Source of the DNA: a virus
Taxonomy: Duplodnaviria; Heunggongvirae; Uroviricota; Caudoviricetes
DNA length: 64,000 nucleotides
Virus record (IMG/VR): IMGVR_UViG_2851976983_000001
Location: 36,474 to 100,473 of that record
Strand: one strand, 5' to 3'
Part shown: positions 15,321 to 61,919 of the stretch, one piece after another
How positions within the stretch are numbered: position 1 is the stretch's first letter
Layout of the letters: each line of letters starts with the position of its first letter
Notes under the pieces: generated by a model
What the model was told of the DNA's origin: nothing
Seen by the model: only the letters and a program-made list of their open reading frames with translations
Databases searched by the model: none
Position numbers and translations under genes: made by a program

Positions 15321-15395
15321 TGGCGATGGTGGGTGGACTCGAACCACCGACCAGTTGATTAACAGTCAACCGCTCTACCACTGAGCTACACCATC
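15321..15395 (-). tRNA. tRNA-Asn (anticodon GUU)
   Basis: Minus-strand sequence GATGGTG-TA-GCTC-AGTGGTA-GAGC-G-GTTGA-CTGTTAA-TCAAC-TGGTC-GGTGG-TTCGAGT-CCACC-CACCATC-G-CCA folds as a cloverleaf with encoded CCA; 75 nt. Confidence 0.85.
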
Positions 15396-16810: not shown

Positions 16811-16970
16811 CCTTAATCTCCTTCAGTGTGTACGTGATATCTACAATGCGGTTAATGCGGCCGCGCCTCTGCATGACACCGGCTTTTACGTAATCGTTGA
16901 TGCAGCTGGACGTAACCAGACTGCCGATAACAATGCCGACGACCAAAAATACAATCATCCAGCCGAGCAT
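16794..16970 (-). CDS. small membrane protein (58 aa) missing from the ORF track
   Basis: Hand translation MLGWMIVFLVVGIVIGSLVTSSCINDYVKAGVMQRRGRINRIVDITYTLKEIKDDHVK; ATG overlaps the ligase stop. Confidence 0.4.
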   Translation of the reverse strand: MLGWMIVFLVVGIVIGSLVTSSCINDYVKAGVMQRRGRINRIVDITYTLKEIKDDHVK

Positions 16971-18292
16971 CAGTCTTTATCTCCAATACGGTCTTCGGTA
17001 TCTCGCAGACATTTCGGCCACTTCAGACGTGGGTGGCGTAAGCTACCGTCCGGCGTTTTCTCATGGCAGTGAACCTCGACGATGCGTCCACGATACTTCT
17101 CCTGATTGTTCCAGATCTCATCCAGGTACTTATGCTTGATACCGCTGGCACGAACGATGACGCCGTTCTCCAGACGAATCACTATCTTGCCCAGCGTATG
17201 CGCAAAGCCAGAGTCCGGGTCGCCTGGCTCGAAGTCGATGATTTCACCGTCTTCGGAATCCTCGTCTTTCAACTTCCACCAGCTGCGGGTACGCTTGAAC
17301 TCGTAAACAGAATCCGGATCTTTGCCCATCTCCCCCTCTTCGTTCTCGTCCAGGCGCTTCATGAAGCGTTCGATAAAGTCTCCATGGCTATGGATGATGT
17401 AGAACGGATGCAGGTGGATATCTTGCGCGTAATCTTCCCCGCAAGTGTTGCGGAACAACGCCACCAGCATAGCCAGGCGCTCTTTCAGCTTCATGCCGGT
17501 CTTCAGGTACTCTTTGCTTTTTGCCTGAGCACGCCACTCCGGTAAGAAGAAATCGAAGATGTGGTAAACGGCACCAATGGCTTTCACGTTCTTCTTGCGA
17601 AGCGCCGATACGGACTGGTTGAACGTACCTGCAGTACCCTCACCATCGAAGAAGATGTGCTTGAACCCGGAGAGTCTGCCTCGCTCCAGCATGGCCGGTT
17701 TAAGGTGATCGAGTGACGTAATCGGATTTCCGGTACGCGTCAGGAAGTTCACCTCTTCCTCGTCAACGATGACTTCGCAGATAACCCGGAGACCATCGAG
17801 TTTGAGGCTGCCGATCATTGGCCACTTGGCCTTTGGATTTGGTTTAAATGGGTATTTGTCGCCTTTCTCCTTGTACGGAGACGCCAGCTGTACCTCAAAC
17901 TTCGGAATTGGGTTTTCGAACACCTTGTTGCACAGGCTGATGCCGACGCCGGCTTTCGGATCTTTCAGCAGGAAGCGACGAAACACGTCCTGCCCGTCAG
18001 CGCACATTGAGGCAACGAGTGATTCGACAGCAGTAATGGCCGCGTTCCCGGTCAGTTCGCGCGCCGCCAGCTTCTCCAGCAGCTCGACTACCTTCTGGTC
18101 GATGGGTACGGAAGTATCGAGTGGCTCGACCACTTTGTACTTCTTCACACCGAATCGAATGAATGGGTTGAGCATTAGCGAGACCATGCTCTGCTCAAAT
18201 TCATCAAGGTTGGCCAGCGCCTCTTTTTTGGCGTTGGTTCCCATCGTTTTTATGGCATCCAGCTTGTGCTTTAGGGCGATCAGTTTTTCCAT
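16970..18292 (-). CDS. ATP-dependent DNA ligase
   Basis: Adenylation motif I SLKLDGLR (KxDGxR); 440 aa. Confidence 0.85.
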   Translation of the reverse strand: MEKLIALKHKLDAIKTMGTNAKKEALANLDEFEQSMVSLMLNPFIRFGVKKYKVVEPLDTSVPIDQKVVELLEKLAARELTGNAAITAVESLVASMCADGQDVFRRFLLKDPKAGVGISLCNKVFENPIPKFEVQLASPYKEKGDKYPFKPNPKAKWPMIGSLKLDGLRVICEVIVDEEEVNFLTRTGNPITSLDHLKPAMLERGRLSGFKHIFFDGEGTAGTFNQSVSALRKKNVKAIGAVYHIFDFFLPEWRAQAKSKEYLKTGMKLKERLAMLVALFRNTCGEDYAQDIHLHPFYIIHSHGDFIERFMKRLDENEEGEMGKDPDSVYEFKRTRSWWKLKDEDSEDGEIIDFEPGDPDSGFAHTLGKIVIRLENGVIVRASGIKHKYLDEIWNNQEKYRGRIVEVHCHEKTPDGSLRHPRLKWPKCLRDTEDRIGDKD

Positions 18293-18326: not shown

Positions 18327-18791
18327 TCATGTGTTTTCTTTGGTTGCTTCTTCAATGAGTGCCGCGTACACGTCAGTGACAGGCCCCAGTGAATCGGTGG
18401 ACGTGGTTTCGGGTTTGGCTGGTTCTGTTTTCTTCGTGCGTTGAATCGTCATGGTGTTGCGCTTCCGGGTAAGCGTTCTGGCGTGGTCGTTTTGCTCTTC
18501 CACTTCTTTGATAAGCGCAGCCATATCGATGAAGTAGAGCTGTTCGCCTTTGCGGATCTCTTCGACCATCATCTTCAGCGCCTGGCATTTTCCAGCAGCA
18601 ATGGCCGCAGCGCAGGACTGGAACGATGTCGCTGGGAGACGCTTCTCTTTGTAGGCGAGGATGGTGTGCTGGCAGACTGTATAGCTGCAATGGGCCTCAT
18701 GGCCGTTGATCTTCACTTCCTGACAGCGCAGCGAATAACCGTTGTTTCCGGAGATAGACGGGATTTTCGACAAATCTGTTTTTGTGGACAT
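18327..18791 (-). CDS. hypothetical Cys/His-rich protein
   Basis: Trimmed to MSTKTDL; CQEVKINGHEAHCSYTVCQH zinc-binding-like cluster; ATAAGTAAGTAC motif ~20 nt upstream. Confidence 0.5.
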   Translation of the reverse strand: MSTKTDLSKIPSISGNNGYSLRCQEVKINGHEAHCSYTVCQHTILAYKEKRLPATSFQSCAAAIAAGKCQALKMMVEEIRKGEQLYFIDMAALIKEVEEQNDHARTLTRKRNTMTIQRTKKTEPAKPETTSTDSLGPVTDVYAALIEEATKENT

Positions 18792-18872
18792 GCTTCTAAC
18801 CGTAGTCGTGTACTTACTTATTGAGCGCAGTTTAAAAAAGCCCCACCAGGGGGCTAAATGGTTTATCAAGGC

Positions 18873-19667
18873 TTACCAGGTAGCCCAGCCAGTCATTTTG
18901 TCCTGAGCGGCTTCGAACCGGTATGGTTCCAGTAAATCGTTGGCATGGTGGACGGCGTAGGATTTTGCCTCCTGTTTAATCATCGGCAGCTCGTTGGCCA
19001 GGCGTGCCACCTGCCCTGCAAAACTGGCGAGCACACCGTCACATGTCTGACCCGCGTCGACAATGATGCGCACCAGGTCTAAGTCGCTGCGGCACATATC
19101 GCAGATGATGCCGTATTCCACCTCACGAATGCGCTCAACGGCTTTTTTGGTATCGCCACTGACCACCAACTCCAGCAAACCAGGTGGGGTTGTCAGATCT
19201 GTAACGCGTTCGGTAACTTCAGGCAGTTCGACAATGCTCAGGAACGCCGCGATAGAAGGATCATCCTCTACGCCAGCCCTGCCTTTGATCGCGCGAAGAG
19301 TCGCGTCGACAATTTCCTCAAACCGTTCACCTTCATCGCACACTGCCTGATTGGTGTAGACAACGCGACCGTCGTACCATGCACCGGCGCGTACTTCGAC
19401 CGTTGCGTCCTTCATTTTGCGAGTGAACGCCACGAGTGCCGCGCGTTTCTGTTTAACACCAGGCAGCTCCGGGGACTCCCCAAAACGAACCCAGACCCGC
19501 ATGTATTTCGAGCCTTCCGAAAGAGGTGCGGTGCTCACAGACGTGGCGATGTGCTCCAGCGCAGTCTGGATCGCCTCATCGATAATCTTCTGGCGCTCTT
19601 CTGTATCAATTTCTACGCCTGATTTGTCGATGATTTCGGTAACGGACTTCTGAATATCTGCTTTCAT
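18873..19667 (-). CDS. hypothetical protein
   Basis: 264-aa ORF; perfect ATAAGTA-N6-TACTTAT palindrome upstream at 19711..19730. Confidence 0.5.
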   Translation of the reverse strand: MKADIQKSVTEIIDKSGVEIDTEERQKIIDEAIQTALEHIATSVSTAPLSEGSKYMRVWVRFGESPELPGVKQKRAALVAFTRKMKDATVEVRAGAWYDGRVVYTNQAVCDEGERFEEIVDATLRAIKGRAGVEDDPSIAAFLSIVELPEVTERVTDLTTPPGLLELVVSGDTKKAVERIREVEYGIICDMCRSDLDLVRIIVDAGQTCDGVLASFAGQVARLANELPMIKQEAKSYAVHHANDLLEPYRFEAAQDKMTGWATW

Positions 19668-19850
19668 AAAGGTTCCTCAATTCCTTCGTCGAGCATATTC
19701 TTACAGAAATATAAGTATGTATCTACTTATCAATGTAGGCGTTTAGTTTCGTTTATAAAAAATGCTCTTAATCTTGTCCAGTTGTAGCTGTCAGGTCACT
19801 TCTATATGATTTCACTTAACTAATACGTTAAACACACAAGGCTTAGGTCT

Positions 19851-20903
19851 ATGACAACGTTGTCCAAAAACGTGATGCAACACAGGAAGGTATTGAAAGA
19901 AACTGGTTTGGCGTTTGCCAAATCTATACCGCTTGTTGGACCTCATATTGAGGCAGCGGAAAAAATGTTCACGTTGTTCTCAGAGATAAATGCGACGACT
20001 TGTCGTGATCGATTCAACCGTTACATTATGGGCATTGGTGAAATTTGCGACGATGAGGTCGATATCTCAAGAGAACACTTTTCGGCGTTAGTCAAAAAGC
20101 TCGTGCTTGATGATGAAGACAAGAAAACAGAATACTACATTCGCTTGACGGTAAGCCTAGCCCGCAGCAGCCTTAACGACGATGAAAAACTATTTTTTAT
20201 CCACATACTGAGTGGGTTAACCTGCTTTGATATTGAATATGCGCGCAAACTTTACATCACAACAAGCTCGCCAATAAAAGGCTATAAATCAACTGTATTA
20301 GCCCAAGTTAGCCTCACATCACAAAAAAGTGGAATGGCTCTGAGATCGCTAAATAAGCTCATAACCTCGGGTCTCGTCTACGAAGACAGGGCTGGCGAGA
20401 TCCAAGCGAACCCCATGTTCAAATTAACAGATGAACTTGAGCGTCTTTTAGGATTTATTTTTCACAAGGATGATTTGGAGCCTGAAGCTTTATCTATTGA
20501 GCCAAAGGAAGAATACGACGTCATTATCATTGAAAGCAGCGAAATCTATAGTGGGGCATATCCAAACAGCATTTATCGTAGTTTGAAAGCCGCCGGCATT
20601 AAGGTTTGCATAGAAAAAAATGAAGACTGCATTACAACCAAGCTGGCAAAGTACTTCATCTCAGTCAAAACAGGGAGCGGACTCAATGGTGAAGGTGAGT
20701 GGATTGAATTTGGGCAAATTTACGTCCTCAAACGCCTAGATTCAAGCAGTAAACGTTTCTATGAAAATGAGCACAGTGAGACAGTCAGTATCAGCAATTT
20801 TAAACCTAAGGATAACGACCAAACATATGATGCAAGTTTGCTAAATATAGCACTAAATAATATCGCTGCGTTTGTCCTGAACCGTCTGTCTCCCACAACT
20901 TAA
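19851..20903 (+). CDS. hypothetical protein; orphan plus-strand AT-rich gene
   Basis: 350-aa ORF opposite to the surrounding minus-strand replication genes; no motif I recognise. Confidence 0.6.
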   Translation: MTTLSKNVMQHRKVLKETGLAFAKSIPLVGPHIEAAEKMFTLFSEINATTCRDRFNRYIMGIGEICDDEVDISREHFSALVKKLVLDDEDKKTEYYIRLTVSLARSSLNDDEKLFFIHILSGLTCFDIEYARKLYITTSSPIKGYKSTVLAQVSLTSQKSGMALRSLNKLITSGLVYEDRAGEIQANPMFKLTDELERLLGFIFHKDDLEPEALSIEPKEEYDVIIIESSEIYSGAYPNSIYRSLKAAGIKVCIEKNEDCITTKLAKYFISVKTGSGLNGEGEWIEFGQIYVLKRLDSSSKRFYENEHSETVSISNFKPKDNDQTYDASLLNIALNNIAAFVLNRLSPTT

Positions 20904-20904
20904 A

Positions 20905-22086
20905 CTACACGAGTGACTCGATACCGAGCACTTTGCATTTTAACTCCAGCTGTTTGGAGTAAGGCTTGGCACGATAATAGGCTTTGAGGATCTGCTCTGG
21001 CGTCGCGTCGCCGGGGTCGAGACCTTCTTCGCCCAGACAGGCCACTTTGACATTTAGTCCGATGCTGGTGAGGCGTTTGGCCGCCGACATGGTGTTGCGG
21101 ATCGCTTGCTTCTCGCTATCCCACATCATGATGACGTTGCGTAATCCACGCGCCTTGAGCGTCAGGAACGCGCCCAACTGATCTTCAGCGTCCTCATTCA
21201 TATTTCCGGACAAGTGCATCCCGAACGTGCCAATTGGCTCTACATAATCCCTCAGCGTCTTTTCGTCGAAGATGGCTCGCTTCACGCCCATTACGTCAAA
21301 TGCCCCTTCACACACAACGACTGTTTGTTTCCCGACTGCGTTGTGGCCGTTGTAGAGAAACTTACCCGACGCCGGCAGCTGCATAGGGAAGAGATAACGG
21401 CGTTCTGCTGCACCGGTAATGTCACGCCCCTGGAAGGTCTTCATCACGCCATCCAGATCGTAAACCGGTATCAGGATGCGCATATCAAACACCTGCCCTT
21501 TGACCTGGTCTGTGTACGGATCGACGTATGCGTGCTTGCCTTCGACGCAGTAACGCAGATCAAAGTATTTGGCCAGATCCGGGGAGATATGGCGCTCCAC
21601 CAGATAATCAGGAAGACGACCGTCAATGGGGAGTTCGTAATGTCGAGGGAGAGCTACTGGCCCTTCGAGTTCAACCTTGCTGGCCAGCACGACCTCTTCC
21701 TTCTTCGGCGCCCATCCTTGTGAGATCAGCGCGTTCTGCACATATTCCTCGAACTGTCGTCGTGATTTACCGCTGTAGTGCTTGAGGAAGACCAGCTTAT
21801 TGAACTGAATCTCTTCGGGATGATCACCAGCAAAGCATTTGCCGACGCCACTGGTCAGATTGAAATATACCTTCCAGTTGGAGCTGCCACATACCGGACA
21901 CTCCTTGATATTCACTTCACGACCGCGAGCACTCACGCCTCCACGTCGATAAACGATACCTTCAGTGTCCAACCATTGTTCAAAATCTAATTCGGTAATT
22001 AGCTCTTTCAGCTCGCTCACGATAATTCCACTTTTAATAGGCAATATTGTGACCAACCTAAATGTTGATATAACATAAAGGCTCAT
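20905..22086 (-). CDS. DNA primase (zinc-ribbon + TOPRIM)
   Basis: CPVCGSS...CFAGDH zinc-binding motif and TOPRIM VVVCEGAFD; start uncertain (ATG at 22086 or GTG near 22021; the ORF-track start 22158 lies beyond a hairpin). Confidence 0.7.
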   Translation of the reverse strand: MSLYVISTFRLVTILPIKSGIIVSELKELITELDFEQWLDTEGIVYRRGGVSARGREVNIKECPVCGSSNWKVYFNLTSGVGKCFAGDHPEEIQFNKLVFLKHYSGKSRRQFEEYVQNALISQGWAPKKEEVVLASKVELEGPVALPRHYELPIDGRLPDYLVERHISPDLAKYFDLRYCVEGKHAYVDPYTDQVKGQVFDMRILIPVYDLDGVMKTFQGRDITGAAERRYLFPMQLPASGKFLYNGHNAVGKQTVVVCEGAFDVMGVKRAIFDEKTLRDYVEPIGTFGMHLSGNMNEDAEDQLGAFLTLKARGLRNVIMMWDSEKQAIRNTMSAAKRLTSIGLNVKVACLGEEGLDPGDATPEQILKAYYRAKPYSKQLELKCKVLGIESLV

Positions 22087-22167
22087 GTGTTTTTCTTTTG
22101 TGGTTTGGCAAAAGAAAAGTTGTTTCACCAATGAATCAAGCGTGGAGGTGTTCTCCACGCTTATTTT

Positions 22168-23508
22168 TTAGGTAACGTCTAAGATTCGCTCAATGAAGCG
22201 CATTTGTTCGAGTTTTTGTTTAACGCGAATGCTGATCCCTCCCTGCTGGTTACGTGAACCAGCAAAGTAGAGACGAGCCTCTCCTTTCGCTTCTTCTTCT
22301 TCGGTTTTGTTGATCGTTATTACCAGGTCAGCAATACGTACTTTTTCGATGTTGTCGGCGGCGTGCATCATTGTGGCAACTTCTGACGCGCCACCTTCAC
22401 GGTTTGTCTGCGATGCCGTGATTCCAGCAACGTTATGTTTGTCATAAAGAGCACGTAAATCGGTGTAGATACTACGAATGTTGGCGCGATCATCACGAAG
22501 GTCATAACTGGCACGCATCAAATCTGCGTAGTCGACAACAACCATGTCAGGCACCATGCCGTTGGCTTTCATGCTGTTAAGCATACGGTCCAGATCTGCC
22601 GGTGACATACTTCCTGACGGACGCTCAACCACCCACAAACTACCAATCCCCTTCGTGGCTCCCAACTCTGCCAACTTACGATGAACCTCATCGCGCCGTT
22701 CCACCAGCTTGGACATTTCCGTCTCCGACAATCTTGCATCAAAACGGTCGGATAAAATGGTAGTGTGAACCTCCAGCGAGAGATACAGAACATTGTAGCC
22801 AGCAAGCGTTGCGTTTATGGAAAACTCACCCATTGCGGTCGATTTACCGGATTTAGCGAACCCCATGAAGAGCACCATTTCACGCTTCGCCCAGCCTTTT
22901 TGGTACAGCAACCTATCGAGCAGAGGGAGTCCAGTTGTAATGCTGTTTGGCACATACTCCTCTGAAGCCTCATATTCACGCGCTTTCAATCGCTCACTTG
23001 CGGAGGTGTAGTAGTCATAGATTCCGGTCGCTTCGTTCGATCCAATCTGCTGAACCTTGGCCATGATTGCCATCGCCCCCTGAAAGTCGCCTTTCTCTTT
23101 CAGTTCAGCAGCCTTAATCAGAGCATCATCAAACGCTACGCTTTTTGCGAAGGTTGATACCTGGTCAACCATGTACGAGGTATCGGACAATTTTTCTGCA
23201 AGGATGCGCTTAAACGCAGCAACAACATCGGCGAATAGTTCCTCACGGATAGTCTTATCGCGTTTCGCACGCTTAAGCATATCCAGAATTGCAGATGAAG
23301 AGGGCGCGCTCTTGTACATACGGTAATAGCCCGAAACCATATTAACCAATATGGCATTGGCCGCATTGGCAAATTGGCTAGGCACAACCAGATCTCCCGC
23401 ACGAGTAAGAAACTCGTGATCACGACAAAAATATGCCGTCAGTCTGTTCTGGAAATCTTCATCAAACTCTTCGGACAGCCCGCGTCCTGTATGGCAAAGT
23501 TCGGTCAT
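22168..23508 (-). CDS. DnaB-type replicative helicase
   Basis: Walker A GFAKSGKST and RecA-like C-terminal core; 446 aa. Confidence 0.85.
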   Translation of the reverse strand: MTELCHTGRGLSEEFDEDFQNRLTAYFCRDHEFLTRAGDLVVPSQFANAANAILVNMVSGYYRMYKSAPSSSAILDMLKRAKRDKTIREELFADVVAAFKRILAEKLSDTSYMVDQVSTFAKSVAFDDALIKAAELKEKGDFQGAMAIMAKVQQIGSNEATGIYDYYTSASERLKAREYEASEEYVPNSITTGLPLLDRLLYQKGWAKREMVLFMGFAKSGKSTAMGEFSINATLAGYNVLYLSLEVHTTILSDRFDARLSETEMSKLVERRDEVHRKLAELGATKGIGSLWVVERPSGSMSPADLDRMLNSMKANGMVPDMVVVDYADLMRASYDLRDDRANIRSIYTDLRALYDKHNVAGITASQTNREGGASEVATMMHAADNIEKVRIADLVITINKTEEEEAKGEARLYFAGSRNQQGGISIRVKQKLEQMRFIERILDVT

Positions 23509-24292: not shown

Positions 24293-24408
24293 GTGGCTCG
24301 CCTGGTAGGTAGTTACTTACTTATCACAATGAGCGAATGATAGCGACTGGTGGCAGTTTTTGGAAGTGGAAACGGAAGGGAGTTGTTCTGGTGGTGTCTT
24401 TTAAAAGA

Positions 24409-24463
24409 CCTGCTTCCGTATATATTTAATAAGTTACTTATTATTTATATATACAGAAGCAGG
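24409..24463. repeat. 55-bp palindromic element, copy A
   Basis: CCTGCTTCCGTATATATTTAATAAGTTACTTATTATTTATATATACAGAAGCAGG; near-identical copy at 61865..61919. Confidence 0.8.
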
Positions 24464-24574: not shown

Positions 24575-25342
24575 ATGGACGATTTATCGGTATACGCGAG
24601 ATCATTGGATAAGGCTAAATACTATGTTTACTGTCTCTATGATACAGAAGACAAGATGAAAAGACCGTTTTACATAGGAAAAGGCAAATCGACTCGTTGT
24701 CTCGATCACATCAAGTATCCCGATGACTCTCCCAAATCCATGCGGATCAAAGAACTTTTGGCTAATAAAAAATTAGGCATAGATATACTTCGTCATGGTA
24801 TGGATGAAACCACAGCCAAACTTGTTGAGGCGACATGCATCGACCTTATGGGGGTCGGAGAGCTTACGAATAAGGTTCGAGGAAGTGGTTCCATGATGGG
24901 CAGAATATCACTGGACGCCTACCATCACTTAGTGCTGCAAGAGGAAACTGAAATTGCTCCTGAGCACGCCGGTCTTGCCTTCCTGCTAAACAGCACCTAC
25001 AAGTCAGGAATGTCCGCTCTGGCATTATATGAAGCTACGCGTGGCGTATGGGCAAAGGTTCCAAGAGACGAGAATCTCAAATATGCCTACGCTACATATG
25101 GTGGGCTGATAATGGAAGTTTATCAGATTGAATGCTGGGTCAAAGCCGGTTCTCAGCAGTACTTTACAAGGGATATAGCTCTTGGCCCCGACACAAAACG
25201 TTATGAATTTGTTGGCAGAATAGCCGATGAGCATATTAGAAAACTGTATGTAGGCAAATTAATCAAGAAGCCACCAAGCTACGGTAGCCCTTTTGTGAAG
25301 GTTGGGGTGGTTAGGACTGAACATAGTGTTAGCGCGGCATAA
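24575..25342 (+). CDS. GIY-YIG nuclease-domain protein (homing-endonuclease-like)
   Basis: N-terminal YYVYCLYD...PFYIGKGKSTRCLDH resembles the GIY-(x10-13)-YIG...R core; plus strand, own terminator. Confidence 0.45.
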   Translation: MDDLSVYARSLDKAKYYVYCLYDTEDKMKRPFYIGKGKSTRCLDHIKYPDDSPKSMRIKELLANKKLGIDILRHGMDETTAKLVEATCIDLMGVGELTNKVRGSGSMMGRISLDAYHHLVLQEETEIAPEHAGLAFLLNSTYKSGMSALALYEATRGVWAKVPRDENLKYAYATYGGLIMEVYQIECWVKAGSQQYFTRDIALGPDTKRYEFVGRIADEHIRKLYVGKLIKKPPSYGSPFVKVGVVRTEHSVSAA

Positions 25343-36155: not shown

Positions 36156-39100
36156 ATTAAGTATGTACCTACTTATTTTTACCTATATAAATATTTTTTT
36201 CTACATTACAGAAGGCCAATTCTTACTCGTAGGACGTTGTTATCGTCATAAACGTCAATCCGCTGACCATTTATGACCAGTCGCCCATTACCCCCGCTAT
36301 TACCGTTGATCTCAAGCGTTCCATTTTTGCCGAACCGCCATCCAGATCTACCGCTAACAAAATTGGTAGATTGCAGATCGCCTACTTTTGCATTGGTGAT
36401 TGTGCCATCCTTGATATACGCACCATTCATATAGGCGATACTGTTTTCGATAACAAATGGCGTGGTGATCTTCCCGTTAACAGAGTTGACCAAACCAAAC
36501 CTGTCAGCCTGCACCAAAAACTGAGAAAGGCCAGTGGTGTCGATACCAAGCGCAATACCAGCAACATACTTCTGCCCTCCGCTCGTTGAAGTCTCCATTT
36601 TCAACGTCCACGCGGTTGACACTTTTTTGTTGGTATCAGCAATAGCTGTTGCCTGCTGTTGAATTGTCGCGGTATTTCCATCCACCTCTGCTTTCAGAGT
36701 GTCGATTCGCCCACTTAGAGCATTATCTGCCTGCGTTCTCGCTGTCGTTTCAGTTGTGACCGCCGCAGAAATGTTGGCTGCTGTTTGAGACTCTAAGTTT
36801 GTGATTTGAGTCGCCAATGCCGCATCTTGCTCTGTACGCGTTTTCGTTTCGGTTGCTACAGCCGCTTTAATATCCTCTTTGTATTGAGAGGTCAGCTTGG
36901 TGATCTGAGACGACAACGCCGAGTCAGCATCAGTTCGAGCCTGCGTTTCAACTGCAACGGCCGCACTAATATCTTTCGCTGTCTGTGCTTTTAAACTTGA
37001 AACCTCTTTTGTTAAAGCGGTATCACCATCAGCACGAGCCGTTGTTTCTCTGGCAAGAGATGCCTCGAGATCATTAGCTTTTGCTGTAAGAGACGAAATC
37101 TGAGTGGACAATGCACTATCGGCATCAGTCCTTGCCTTTGTCTCTACAGCAACCGCTGCGGCAATATCAGTTCCGGTTTGTGCTCGCAGGCTGTTAATTT
37201 CTCGTGAGAGCGCCTGGTCAGCACTTGCTCTGGTCTCCTGCTCCTGAGTGATGGCAGCGGATATATCACCGTCAACCTTTGACTGAAGCTGGTTTATTTG
37301 TTTGGCTAACGCAGAGTCCCCGCTTGCTCGGGCCTCCTGCTCACTACGTATTGCAGCAGAAATATCATCATCAACCTTTGCCTGAAGTTGGGTGATCTGG
37401 CTTGCCAGAGCCGAATCTTCCGTTGCTCGGGCTTCTTGCTCTTCCTTAATAGCTGCGACGATATCGTTGCTTACTTTCGACTCAAGCTGAGTGATCTGTG
37501 TCGTCAGAGCTTCATCGGCAGATGTGCGAGCCTCCTGCTCTGTACTAATCGCCGCGCTGATATCTCCTTCAAACTTAGATTGCAGCTGAGTGACACGCTT
37601 TGCCAACGCTTCATCGCCATCGGCACGAGCGGTGGACTCTTCCAGAATACTGGCCTTAATGTCTTCGCCAATTTCTACGCGAATTTCCTCAACCTTCGTG
37701 GCCATTGCAGACATATCATCAGCAAAGGTTTTCTGTGTTGTTGCGATCTTCGCGTTATTGACCATCTGCTTGTGCTGGTCTTCATCTTGACGAAGAGCCA
37801 GGTCAATATTTGTTTTGGCTAACGCCTCAATGTTCGTAGTCAGTTCTGCACTGGCACGATCGACCTCTGCAACCGTCTTTTTCATTTCTTCAACGGCAGC
37901 GGAGCTTTCCTCTACCGTTGACTGCAACACTTCCAGTTGTTTAGCGTTTGCAGCATCGCCTTCAACACGAGCCTCGCTTTCCTTAGCAATAAGAGCCGCC
38001 GCTTCATCTCTTGCAGCCTTTATTGCCTCGACTGTATTAGCGAGAGCTTTATCGTGTTCAGATACGGTGTTTTCGATTTCAACAATTGCAGCATCAGTAG
38101 CATCAATTTTTTCAAACGCTTCATTGACCTTGTCGATCGTTGCCGAAACCTCACCTTTAAGCTCGGTTTGTGCGTTCTCCAAAGCATCGCTACGCTCGTT
38201 GAATTTTATTTCAAAACCCGCGAGGTTATCGCTGAACTGCTTATCTAATTCAGCTATATCTTCCTTAACGTCGTTTACCGACCCCTCCAAAGATTCGACG
38301 CTCTGGTTGATATGCTCATTTAACTCGTCAACTGCTTCTTGAGAGGCTTTGCTGTTGATGTCCTCAAGCAGAGCCTGACCAAGCTCGGAAGATGTAATTT
38401 TGCCAGCCAGGAACGACAGTACATCGCGAGTTGTCGCCTCTGTACCCAAGTTTGAGTTCGGAGGGCTTAACATACCTCGCTTGTTCGATGCTCGAACCCA
38501 GTAATACCACGTTTCGCTATCCCCAAGACCAGCATGTGTAAAGGTGGTGCTTGCAGACTCTGCGATCAGTTTCGCCGTATCCAGATTGTTGGTCTGGGAT
38601 GCGTAAACATTAATGTGATCAAGGTCTACCGAATCTGGATTAACCCAATTCAGTATCACATTACGATAGTCTCCAACGGCCGTTAATGACGTTGGGGCAT
38701 CCGGCGGTGTCATTGTGCCCAACACCTGATAAACGGTACTGATAATCTCTGTTTTTTTACCGTTGAATGAAACCGCATACAGTTGGAAGTCGTAGTGTCC
38801 ATTCTCCGCGACATTAACGATTTCGTATTGCTCTTCGGTTACACGCGCCGATTGCCAGTTCGATACATTGTTTTCATCAGAACGTCGCCAACTGATCCAA
38901 TACTCTGGAGATTTTCCTTCCCATGTTGCAGTCAGTTTTACTGACAGGTTGCCCGGGCTTGAGAGATAAGTCCCTTCAGTGATTTGCAGATTAGATGGCT
39001 TGGAGTAAGTTGGGTCCAATACCGTCGTATTCTGCGGGATCAGCGTTGCGCCATTGTCGATTGCCTCATATTTAGACGGATTGTTCTCAACAGCGGTGAT

Positions 39101-39229: not shown

Positions 39230-41174
<1,945 letters not shown>

Positions 41175-41199
41175 ACTTCCTGAGAAAGAGGTAAACAGG

Positions 41200-41522
41200 A
41201 TGACTAAAAATACTCGTTTTTCCCCCGAAGTCCGTCAACGGGCAGTCCGTATGGTTCTGGAAAGTCAGGATGAATATGACTCACAGTGGGCGGCAATTTG
41301 TTCCATTGCCCCAAAGATTGGCTGTACGCCGGAGACTCTGCGTGTCTGGGTTCGCCAGCATGAGCGGGATACCGGGGGCGGTGATGGTGGGCTCACCAGC
41401 GCTGAACGTCAGCGTCTGAAAGAGCTGGAACGTGAAAATCGTGAACTGCGCCGCAGTAACGATATCCTTCGCCAGGCTTCCGCTTATTTTGCGAAGGCGG
41501 AGTTCGACCGCCTCTGGAAGAA

Positions 41523-41526
<4 letters not shown>
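41200..41526 (+). CDS. IS3-family transposase OrfA
   Basis: [57 protein letters not shown] (HTH + leucine zipper). Confidence 0.9.
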
Positions 41527-42551
<1,025 letters not shown>

Positions 42552-61748: not shown

Positions 61749-61864
61749 AGATCCCTCTAAAACACACAGAGCGCGTCCATGCGCTCTAAAACAACTTGTT
61801 TACTGCATCTGCTAACCAACTTGTTTTCTGGGGTGTTTAATTAGGTCTGGCATGTCTTACGAAG

Positions 61865-61919
61865 CCTGCTTCCGTATATATTTAATAAGTTACTTATTAT
61901 TTATATATACAGATGCAGG
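61865..61919. repeat. 55-bp palindromic element, copy B
   Basis: CCTGCTTCCGTATATATTTAATAAGTTACTTATTATTTATATATACAGATGCAGG; one mismatch relative to copy A. Confidence 0.8.

Follow-up and report, generated by a model that had tools for sequence, protein, structure and literature searches.

What does a gene of 350 amino acids (aa), read from the plus strand and richer in AT than its neighbours, do among the minus-strand replication genes of a virus genome? We addressed this question in a stretch of 64,000 nucleotides (nt), called here the window, which covers positions 36,474 to 100,473 of the IMG/VR virus record IMGVR_UViG_2851976983_000001 (Caudoviricetes). An earlier note on this DNA had placed the open reading frame (ORF) at 19851..20903, where we also find it, and had taken it for a horizontally acquired single-gene moron such as an abortive-infection or exclusion factor. 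Comparison with related elements strongly supports the moron: the 350-aa gene forms an accessory cassette of its own that occupies a cargo hotspot of SSU5/pHCM2-type phage-plasmids. Which function the cassette brings is weighed below.

A cargo hotspot in SSU5/pHCM2-type phage-plasmids

The window region is 100% identical to the E. coli plasmids CP025897 and NZ_CP025870 and 99.4% identical to pHCM2 of Salmonella Typhi CT18, and it is syntenic with Salmonella phage SSU5. These identities, together with the synteny, indicate that the window comes from a phage-plasmid of the SSU5/pHCM2 type. The gene set of the element comprises ParA, a ligase, a primase, a helicase, tail genes, a tRNA-Asn and an integrase-family gene. 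Such phage-plasmids are frequent among clinical isolates of Salmonella Typhi, Shigella, E. coli, Klebsiella and Enterobacter, and have a backbone in common with pMT1 of Yersinia pestis, but their accessory content is poorly understood.

Presence and absence were compared among the relatives, and the 350-aa gene proved not to be conserved at this locus. In a junction alignment of seven relatives, the 5' end of the neighbouring 264-aa backbone gene, the region upstream of it and a 20-bp palindrome were common to all, and similarity to the gene-less relatives broke off at ~19742 and restarted at the primase stop codon, at 20905. Where the site is empty, as in E. coli pNT1F34-108k and E. hormaechei pE5_002, the palindrome and the primase stop codon are only ~17 nt apart, and a 401-bp probe of the empty junction gave an uninterrupted match in 86 plasmids of PLSDB, a collection in which 755 plasmids carry the 264-aa gene. 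Other genes occupy the site elsewhere: an unrelated minus-strand gene of 143 aa in pHD8642-1 and, in Y. pestis pMT1 (43 records), a plus-strand gene whose 240-aa product combines CxxC zinc-finger motifs with a DUF4145 (HEPN-like) domain. Alleles of the 350-aa family are carried by ~55-60 SSU5-like plasmids, 41 of them at 99% identity or more and the others at 57-80%. Among 5,426 complete E. coli genomes, 252 have an SSU5-like primase region, and the full flank-gene-flank arrangement is present in 7 of these 252. The locus is organized as follows.

19743..20904, plus strand: accessory cassette (promoter-like element and 350-aa gene), between the backbone palindrome and the primase stop codon
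19782..19810, plus strand: putative promoter-like element TTGTAG-N17-TATGAT, inside the cassette
19851..20903, plus strand: coding sequence of the 350-aa protein, ATG start, phrog_22938
18873..19667, minus strand: backbone gene of 264 aa, phrog_4248, left flank of the hotspot, divergent from the 350-aa gene
19711..19730, unstranded: 20-bp backbone palindrome ATAAGTAnGTAnnTACTTAT, left border of the hotspot, 44 nt upstream of the ATG of the 264-aa gene
20905..22158, minus strand: Toprim/DnaG-like primase, right flank of the hotspot, convergent with the 350-aa gene

The stop codons of the 350-aa gene and the primase gene are 1 nt apart. The greater AT-richness noticed earlier held up when composition was computed, the flanks being clearly different: the GC content of the gene is 41.4% against 49-55% in the six nearest minus-strand genes, its GC at third codon positions is 43.9% against 51-66% in the neighbouring minus-strand genes, and it falls within the lowest 1.3% of sliding windows of the same length. 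The spacer upstream of the gene (19668-19850) has 33.9% GC.

Non-synonymous (dN) and synonymous (dS) divergence, given here as Nei-Gojobori estimates, separates the gene from its surroundings. Between the window and SSU5, the flanking genes have dS values of 0.19 and 0.38 and dN values of 0.02-0.03, whereas in the 350-aa gene dN reaches 0.33 and dS is saturated. The alleles are thus far older than the backbones that host them, which points to their replacement by recombination. Between pHCM2 and the window there is no amino-acid change in the 350-aa gene, and its dS of 0.014, below the 0.05-0.17 of the flanks, suggests a recent transfer. The moron reading of the earlier note thus agrees with a site that is empty in 86 plasmids and filled by other genes in pMT1 and pHD8642-1, with a foreign composition and with alleles that are mosaic (see below) and older than their flanks.

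The cassette would also bring its own putative promoter. The TTGTAG-N17-TATGAT element and the start region are kept between the most diverged alleles, the coding regions of which are synonymously saturated. A simple promoter and terminator scan gave nothing convincing for the 350-aa gene: the element lies below the consensus threshold, and no terminator was detected.

Cargo hotspots in temperate elements are a known phenomenon; here, the cargo family is one that curated defence databases do not recognize. P2 and P4 embody the hotspot concept for defence genes of temperate phages and satellites. As in those hotspots, conserved flanks enclose interchangeable foreign cargo at one precise site that also exists in an empty state, and among the alternative or nearby cargo are genes with a known or suspected defence role (PD-T4-3, PDC-S31 and DUF4145/HEPN). 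Unlike the P2 and P4 hotspots, the present one belongs to an SSU5-type phage-plasmid, it is embedded in the replication module, a recurrent backbone palindrome bounds it on the left, and the cargo family found in the window has no demonstrated defence activity. DUF4145 is a HEPN-like domain that occurs in the validated abortive-infection proteins BxaP and RAZR (PMC10799925, PMC13434031). The zinc-finger and DUF4145 protein of pMT1, whose likeness to the RNase RAZR is judged from domain layout alone, is the positional equivalent of the 350-aa gene, at the same site and on the same strand, but RAZR and BxaP have no relationship of sequence or fold with the window protein. In the pMT plasmid NZ_CP045155 (L006, 4321-5043), IS256 and IS110 elements come after the 240-aa gene, in the place of the primase and the helicase.

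A second variable site lies ~4 kb away, between a 246-aa gene and parA. In the window, where it belongs to the replication/partition module, it holds at 24575-25342 on the plus strand an AT-rich gene for a PD-T4-3 homologue (PADLOC E = 1e-23; 44.5% GC) that carries a GIY-YIG domain (Pfam LEM-3_GIY-YIG), and in pHCM2 and SSU5 it holds a PDC-S31/DUF2971 gene. The other plus-strand gene of ~350 aa in pHCM2, which sits at this second hotspot, has no relation to the 350-aa family.

The protein family and its modules

The 350-aa ORF codes for a real protein. Wherever dS is measurable, dN/dS between its alleles is 0.07-0.19, hence a coding gene under purifying selection, and 89 homologous clusters and confident AlphaFold models agree with this. 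An Rfam search of 19300-21300 found no RNA.

The earlier note had regarded the gene as an orphan without recognizable motif, a view that changed once remote homology and structure prediction were applied: the protein belongs to phrog_22938, which it matches end to end, and contains a winged-helix domain. All 46 of the aligned family members match the same phrog, and no link led from the family to any annotated family in PHROGs. A word-indexed search returned 12 clusters, none below 52% identity and each of them from SSU5-like elements, and repeating it with a 46-sequence profile added just three members, which are distant. A full scan of 1.8 billion representatives with a hidden Markov model (HMM) gave the 89 clusters, mostly of 340-390 aa. 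When viral contigs were scanned for family loci, the alleles of SSU5-like elements alone appeared. A sequence search of the PDB with a profile of the close alleles gave nothing, Foldseek with the full model had no PDB match at E <= 0.001, and a literature search by accession numbers and locus tags was likewise empty.

AlphaFold modelled the full-length protein with a mean local confidence (pLDDT) of 77 and a global score (pTM) of 0.72, which became 94 and 0.87 for residues 30-215 with a deeper alignment. The modelled architecture consists of a long helix with a helical bundle (~32-139), a winged helix (~148-192), with the helix-turn-helix and beta-hairpin wing of that fold, and an alpha/beta domain (~220-345). 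On the DNA, the modules are delimited as follows.

19851..20270, plus strand: N-module, residues 1-140, long helix and helical bundle, which recombines as a unit
20271..20465, plus strand: winged-helix (MarR-like) domain, residues ~141-205, with the recognition-helix motif LRSLNKLITSGLVYE
20466..20900, plus strand: fast-evolving C-terminal alpha/beta domain, residues 206-350, putative specificity or sensor module

K92 and Y96, in the N-module motif DDEDKKxEYYxRL, are invariant family-wide, and L123, L170, G174 and L175 are nearly so. The protein is predicted to be soluble, with an isoelectric point (pI) of 5.6 and no membrane segment.

Evolution is fastest in the C-terminal 140 residues (dN 0.64 versus 0.18; amino-acid identity 31% versus 73%). 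Moreover, the family contains natural chimeric alleles, P0005 and P0006 (alignment A1), whose two modules have different nearest relatives. P0006 shares 99% identity with the window protein in residues 1-140, 57% in 141-205 and 36% in 206-350, and the comparison of P0005 with P0002 gives the reciprocal pattern. From these mosaic alleles, residues 1-140 and 141-350 can be defined as two exchangeable modules, and the pattern shows intragenic recombination with a breakpoint near residue 140.

A proposed role in conflict between mobile elements and its alternatives

The reading that we favour, with moderate confidence, is that the 350-aa protein acts in conflict with phages or other mobile elements, that is, in defence. 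We base it on the modularity of the protein, the company found in the hotspot, the neighbours of the homologues and a resemblance to Abi-alpha. The gene would be expressed from its own promoter while the plasmid-prophage is carried, and its product, acting through abortive infection or exclusion, would shield both the element and its host from competing phages or other mobile elements. The variable winged-helix and C-terminal module (141-350) would recognize a component or a nucleic acid of the invader, and the conserved N-module would then deliver the effect, through oligomerization or by engaging a cellular or nuclease partner. Abi-alpha, also a lone opposite-strand gene in the early or replication region of temperate phages, would be the parallel.

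Judged by its genomic surroundings, the family is mobile-element cargo, often but not always amid defence-type genes. In Geotalea, the gene next to the homologue, 165 nt downstream, codes for a stand-alone Mrr_cat nuclease. In two groundwater-type metagenome lineages, the homologue lies 14 nt downstream of a gene for a 423-aa PLD-family nuclease; MqsA/ImmA and an N6 methyltransferase are encoded close by. These arrangements suggest that the family protein partners with a nuclease in other lineages. Apparent two-gene nuclease units are located at L010 5588-7928, L013 3845-6186 and L007 8001-9934. In Klebsiella IncFIA/IncR plasmids (~49 records), a homologue with 40% identity overlaps a KfrA_N gene at the stop codon of the latter, an AIPR gene lies downstream, and the three genes may constitute a module. 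One example is the K. pneumoniae plasmid NZ_CP063009 (L027, 5297-9425), AIPR being of the abortive-infection type. On E. coli IncF plasmids, the homologue stands beside a RelE/ParE toxin-antitoxin pair and an OLD-like ATPase-Toprim protein. An integrative and conjugative element (ICE) carries its homologue as opposite-strand cargo inside a ParA-DnaB-TraR module, with a DUF4145 gene nearby, and two homologues in conjugative or integrative elements adjoin ArdC. On other contigs, the homologue is found beside an ORF6N/antirepressor-type gene or on a plasmid-like contig.

Abi-alpha (EF2833 of the E. faecalis prophage-6) is an experimentally demonstrated abortive-infection protein of prophages that acts by premature lysis through a mechanism that is unsolved (PMC6356687) and was still so in 2025 (preprint 10.1101/2025.10.23.684294). 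It corresponds to Pfam PF14337/DUF4393, with a gathering score of 29 bits, and to PADLOC PDC-S47. PF14337 matches were obtained in 4 of the 46 relatives, the best in P0065 (E = 8e-6, 26.4 bits) and the others at E = 0.007-0.015, and they align profile positions 32-161 with window residues ~77-190. The positive control, ABF73047 of the S. aureus phage phiNM1, scored 153.6 bits with PF14337 and 3.8e-43 with PDC-S47; a 310-aa gene of phiNM1 that adjoins the repressor was set aside, as ABF73047 is the true member. With nine more phage proteins, ABF73047 made up a bona fide Abi-alpha set of ten. When the family was searched with an HMM of this set, six members outranked the top reversed-sequence decoy, with 3.5e-5 as the best value; the signal centres on SIxNLERLGLI, which corresponds to SLNKLITSGLV in the window protein. 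A comparison of the family and Abi-alpha alignments by hhalign (A3 versus A6) aligned 67 columns with P = 0.006.

The two also have in common that they are partnerless single genes of temperate phages, without an enzymatic motif and with a similar winged-helix signature in the central region. The habit of a lone opposite-strand gene in the early or replication region is shared by the window gene with the Abi-alpha genes of phiNM1, StauST398-5, IPP23, phi4B1, Jekyll and Javan36. The bona fide Abi-alpha genes (phiNM1, L030 8828-9685; L031-L039) are nearly always lone, on the opposite strand and beside replication or antirepressor genes, and those sampled came from phages of Staphylococcus, Streptococcus, Bacillus and Roseburia. 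The two differ in length (350 aa versus ~270-285 aa for Abi-alpha) and in layout, since the N-terminal module with DDEDKKxEYY and the C-terminal alpha/beta domain of the window protein are unlike those of Abi-alpha, whose C-terminal KGxIxxTxFGKxFxxxC motif it lacks. Abi-alpha was sampled mainly in Firmicutes prophages, whereas the 350-aa family occurs in proteobacterial plasmids, ICEs and phage-plasmids. It is possible that the winged-helix cores are distantly related, but membership of the window protein in the Abi-alpha family is not established.

Several observations weigh against a defence role. With respect to Abi-alpha, the window protein has no PF14337 match at E <= 0.1, the best score among the relatives stays under the gathering score, the hhalign probability is just 6% with the winged helix alone aligned, and a search of all phiNM1 ORFs with the family HMM returned nothing, so that the Abi-alpha protein was missed. 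No Pfam family lies above threshold for the window protein, and NCBIfam likewise gave nothing meaningful. PADLOC 2.0 produced no significant match, PDC-S47 included, for the window protein and the 46 relatives; what it returned were stray weak matches such as PDC-M11B at E = 1e-3 in one relative. DefenseFinder reportedly detects no defence system in pHCM2-like elements (preprint 10.1101/2025.09.12.675607). The protein has no catalytic motif or conserved constellation, and no membrane segment, that would hint at an effector. Its winged-helix segment has a pI of 8.4, but the family median is 5.1, and since the segment is not markedly basic family-wide, DNA binding is not assured. Where measurable, dN/dS gives no sign of positive selection. 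Finally, some homologues adjoin KfrA-like, ArdC or partition genes, a company that suits maintenance or anti-defence just as well.

Within the defence reading, we tentatively propose a broader one, in which phrog_22938 would make up a hitherto unrecognized class of immunity factors, modular and consisting of a single protein, that plasmids, ICEs and phage-plasmids carry. The conserved helical N-module would be the effector or adaptor, and the specificity for a target would come from the recombining winged-helix and C-terminal cassette; in some lineages, stand-alone PLD or Mrr nucleases would be partners. If this is true, pHCM2, a long-cryptic plasmid of S. Typhi that is clinically widespread and carries the family, gains its first assigned phenotype, and the site between the 264-aa gene and the primase is a defence hotspot of SSU5-type elements. 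A precise hotspot with clean empty and filled states and a mosaic family make the gene a directly testable anti-phage or anti-plasmid candidate. The hotspot can also serve as a bait site for mining further cargo, the HEPN/DUF4145 and 143-aa genes being already there. Were the function confirmed, the weak but consistent link with Abi-alpha would extend that family to Proteobacteria, and specificity could be dissected with the help of the natural domain-swap alleles.

The alternative that survives best, although we consider it unlikely, is that the protein serves mobile elements as a MarR-like regulator or as an accessory in their maintenance, in which case the winged helix would bind DNA and the C-terminal domain would sense a signal. 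Such a protein would tune expression, partition or stability of the element, or host genes (lysogenic conversion), and would not attack invaders. The winged-helix fold and the sequence similarity to MarR/SlyA point in this direction, and a winged helix joined to a C-terminal alpha/beta domain would be the general layout of a one-component regulator. However, the window protein has no Pfam MarR match, does not present the usual arrangement of MarR dimerization helices, is acidic overall and has additional N- and C-terminal domains, and its winged-helix region is not basic across the family. On the side of a regulator, the Klebsiella homologue overlaps the stop codon of the gene for KfrA_N, a DNA-binding protein, other homologues lie in ParA/DnaB or ParM neighbourhoods, and the window gene itself adjoins the recurrent palindrome; yet the 86 close relatives with the same backbone and palindromes dispense with the gene, and defence-type genes are alternative occupants of its site. 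The extreme divergence of the alleles, their mosaicism and the foreign composition would also be odd for a regulator matched to its element.

An anti-defence (counter-immunity) protein, which would neutralize host immunity during establishment and whose variable C-terminal domain would track host targets, is in our estimation quite improbable. A modular, fast-evolving architecture carried by mobile elements fits either side of an arms race, and the two ArdC genes adjoining homologues in conjugative elements are anti-restriction genes. Nevertheless, the orientation of the gene against the early/replication operon and its putative sigma-70-like promoter would suggest expression in the carried state and not upon entry. 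Anti-defence proteins are typically smaller than this protein of 350 aa and three domains. In addition, several homologues are in operon with nucleases, and defence-type genes occur both at the same site and in the neighbouring hotspot.

A core component of the replication module, such as an origin-binding or initiator accessory protein, is highly improbable and essentially refuted by the absence of the gene from 86 otherwise near-identical plasmids and from most SSU5-like elements of E. coli, by the unrelated substitutes in pMT1 and pHD8642-1 and by its foreign composition. A decaying remnant or spurious ORF without function, which the AT-richness and the absence of annotation everywhere might suggest, is scarcely credible in view of the purifying selection, which refutes it, the zero non-synonymous changes relative to pHCM2, the full-length conservation across 13 alleles and 89 clusters and the confident structure models.

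The backbone palindrome and other features of the element

The ATAAGTA-N6-TACTTAT palindrome was found exactly where the earlier note had seen it, at 19711-19730, but its association with the 350-aa gene did not survive the comparison. The sequence is unchanged in seven relatives, empty-site plasmids included, and within the window 11 matches with at most two mismatches were counted against 0.14 expected, with the consensus ATAAGTAwGTAcnTACTTAT. The palindrome therefore stands outside the cassette, and its persistence in relatives with an empty site, together with its repetition along the backbone, led us to discard the idea that it is an operator or attachment site belonging to the moron. The majority of the copies are situated between co-directional genes, 13-130 nt upstream of the start of a minus-strand gene, and the motif probably serves the phage-plasmid as an operator or promoter element. 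The copies and the remaining genes of the module are located as follows.

12317, 16128, 19711, 24305, 36157, 52846 and 58337, unstranded: 20-bp palindrome sites
24422/24429 and 61878/61885, unstranded: palindrome copies that contain the half-site
16970..18292, minus strand: ATP-dependent DNA ligase
18327..18869, minus strand: unannotated gene
22168..23508, minus strand: DnaB-like helicase

A 56-bp sequence, CCTGCTTCCGTATATATTTAATAAGTTACTTATTATTTATATATACAGA(A/T)GCAGG, occurs twice, at 24408-24463 and 61864-61919, with one base different between the copies. Each copy has a divergent intergenic location and forms an inverted repeat around an AT-rich core that holds the half-site of the 20-bp palindrome. 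This repeat could be a master operator or an origin-like element.

A tRNA-Asn (GTT) gene is present at 15321-15395 on the minus strand of the window, and SSU5 has one likewise. Among the tail-region genes, the stretch 39370-42413 holds on the plus strand an IS21-family insertion sequence, with an IstA-like protein of 340 aa and an IstB of 261 aa, and next to it an IS3-type transposase gene (296 aa); the local GC content is higher there, at 0.52-0.55.

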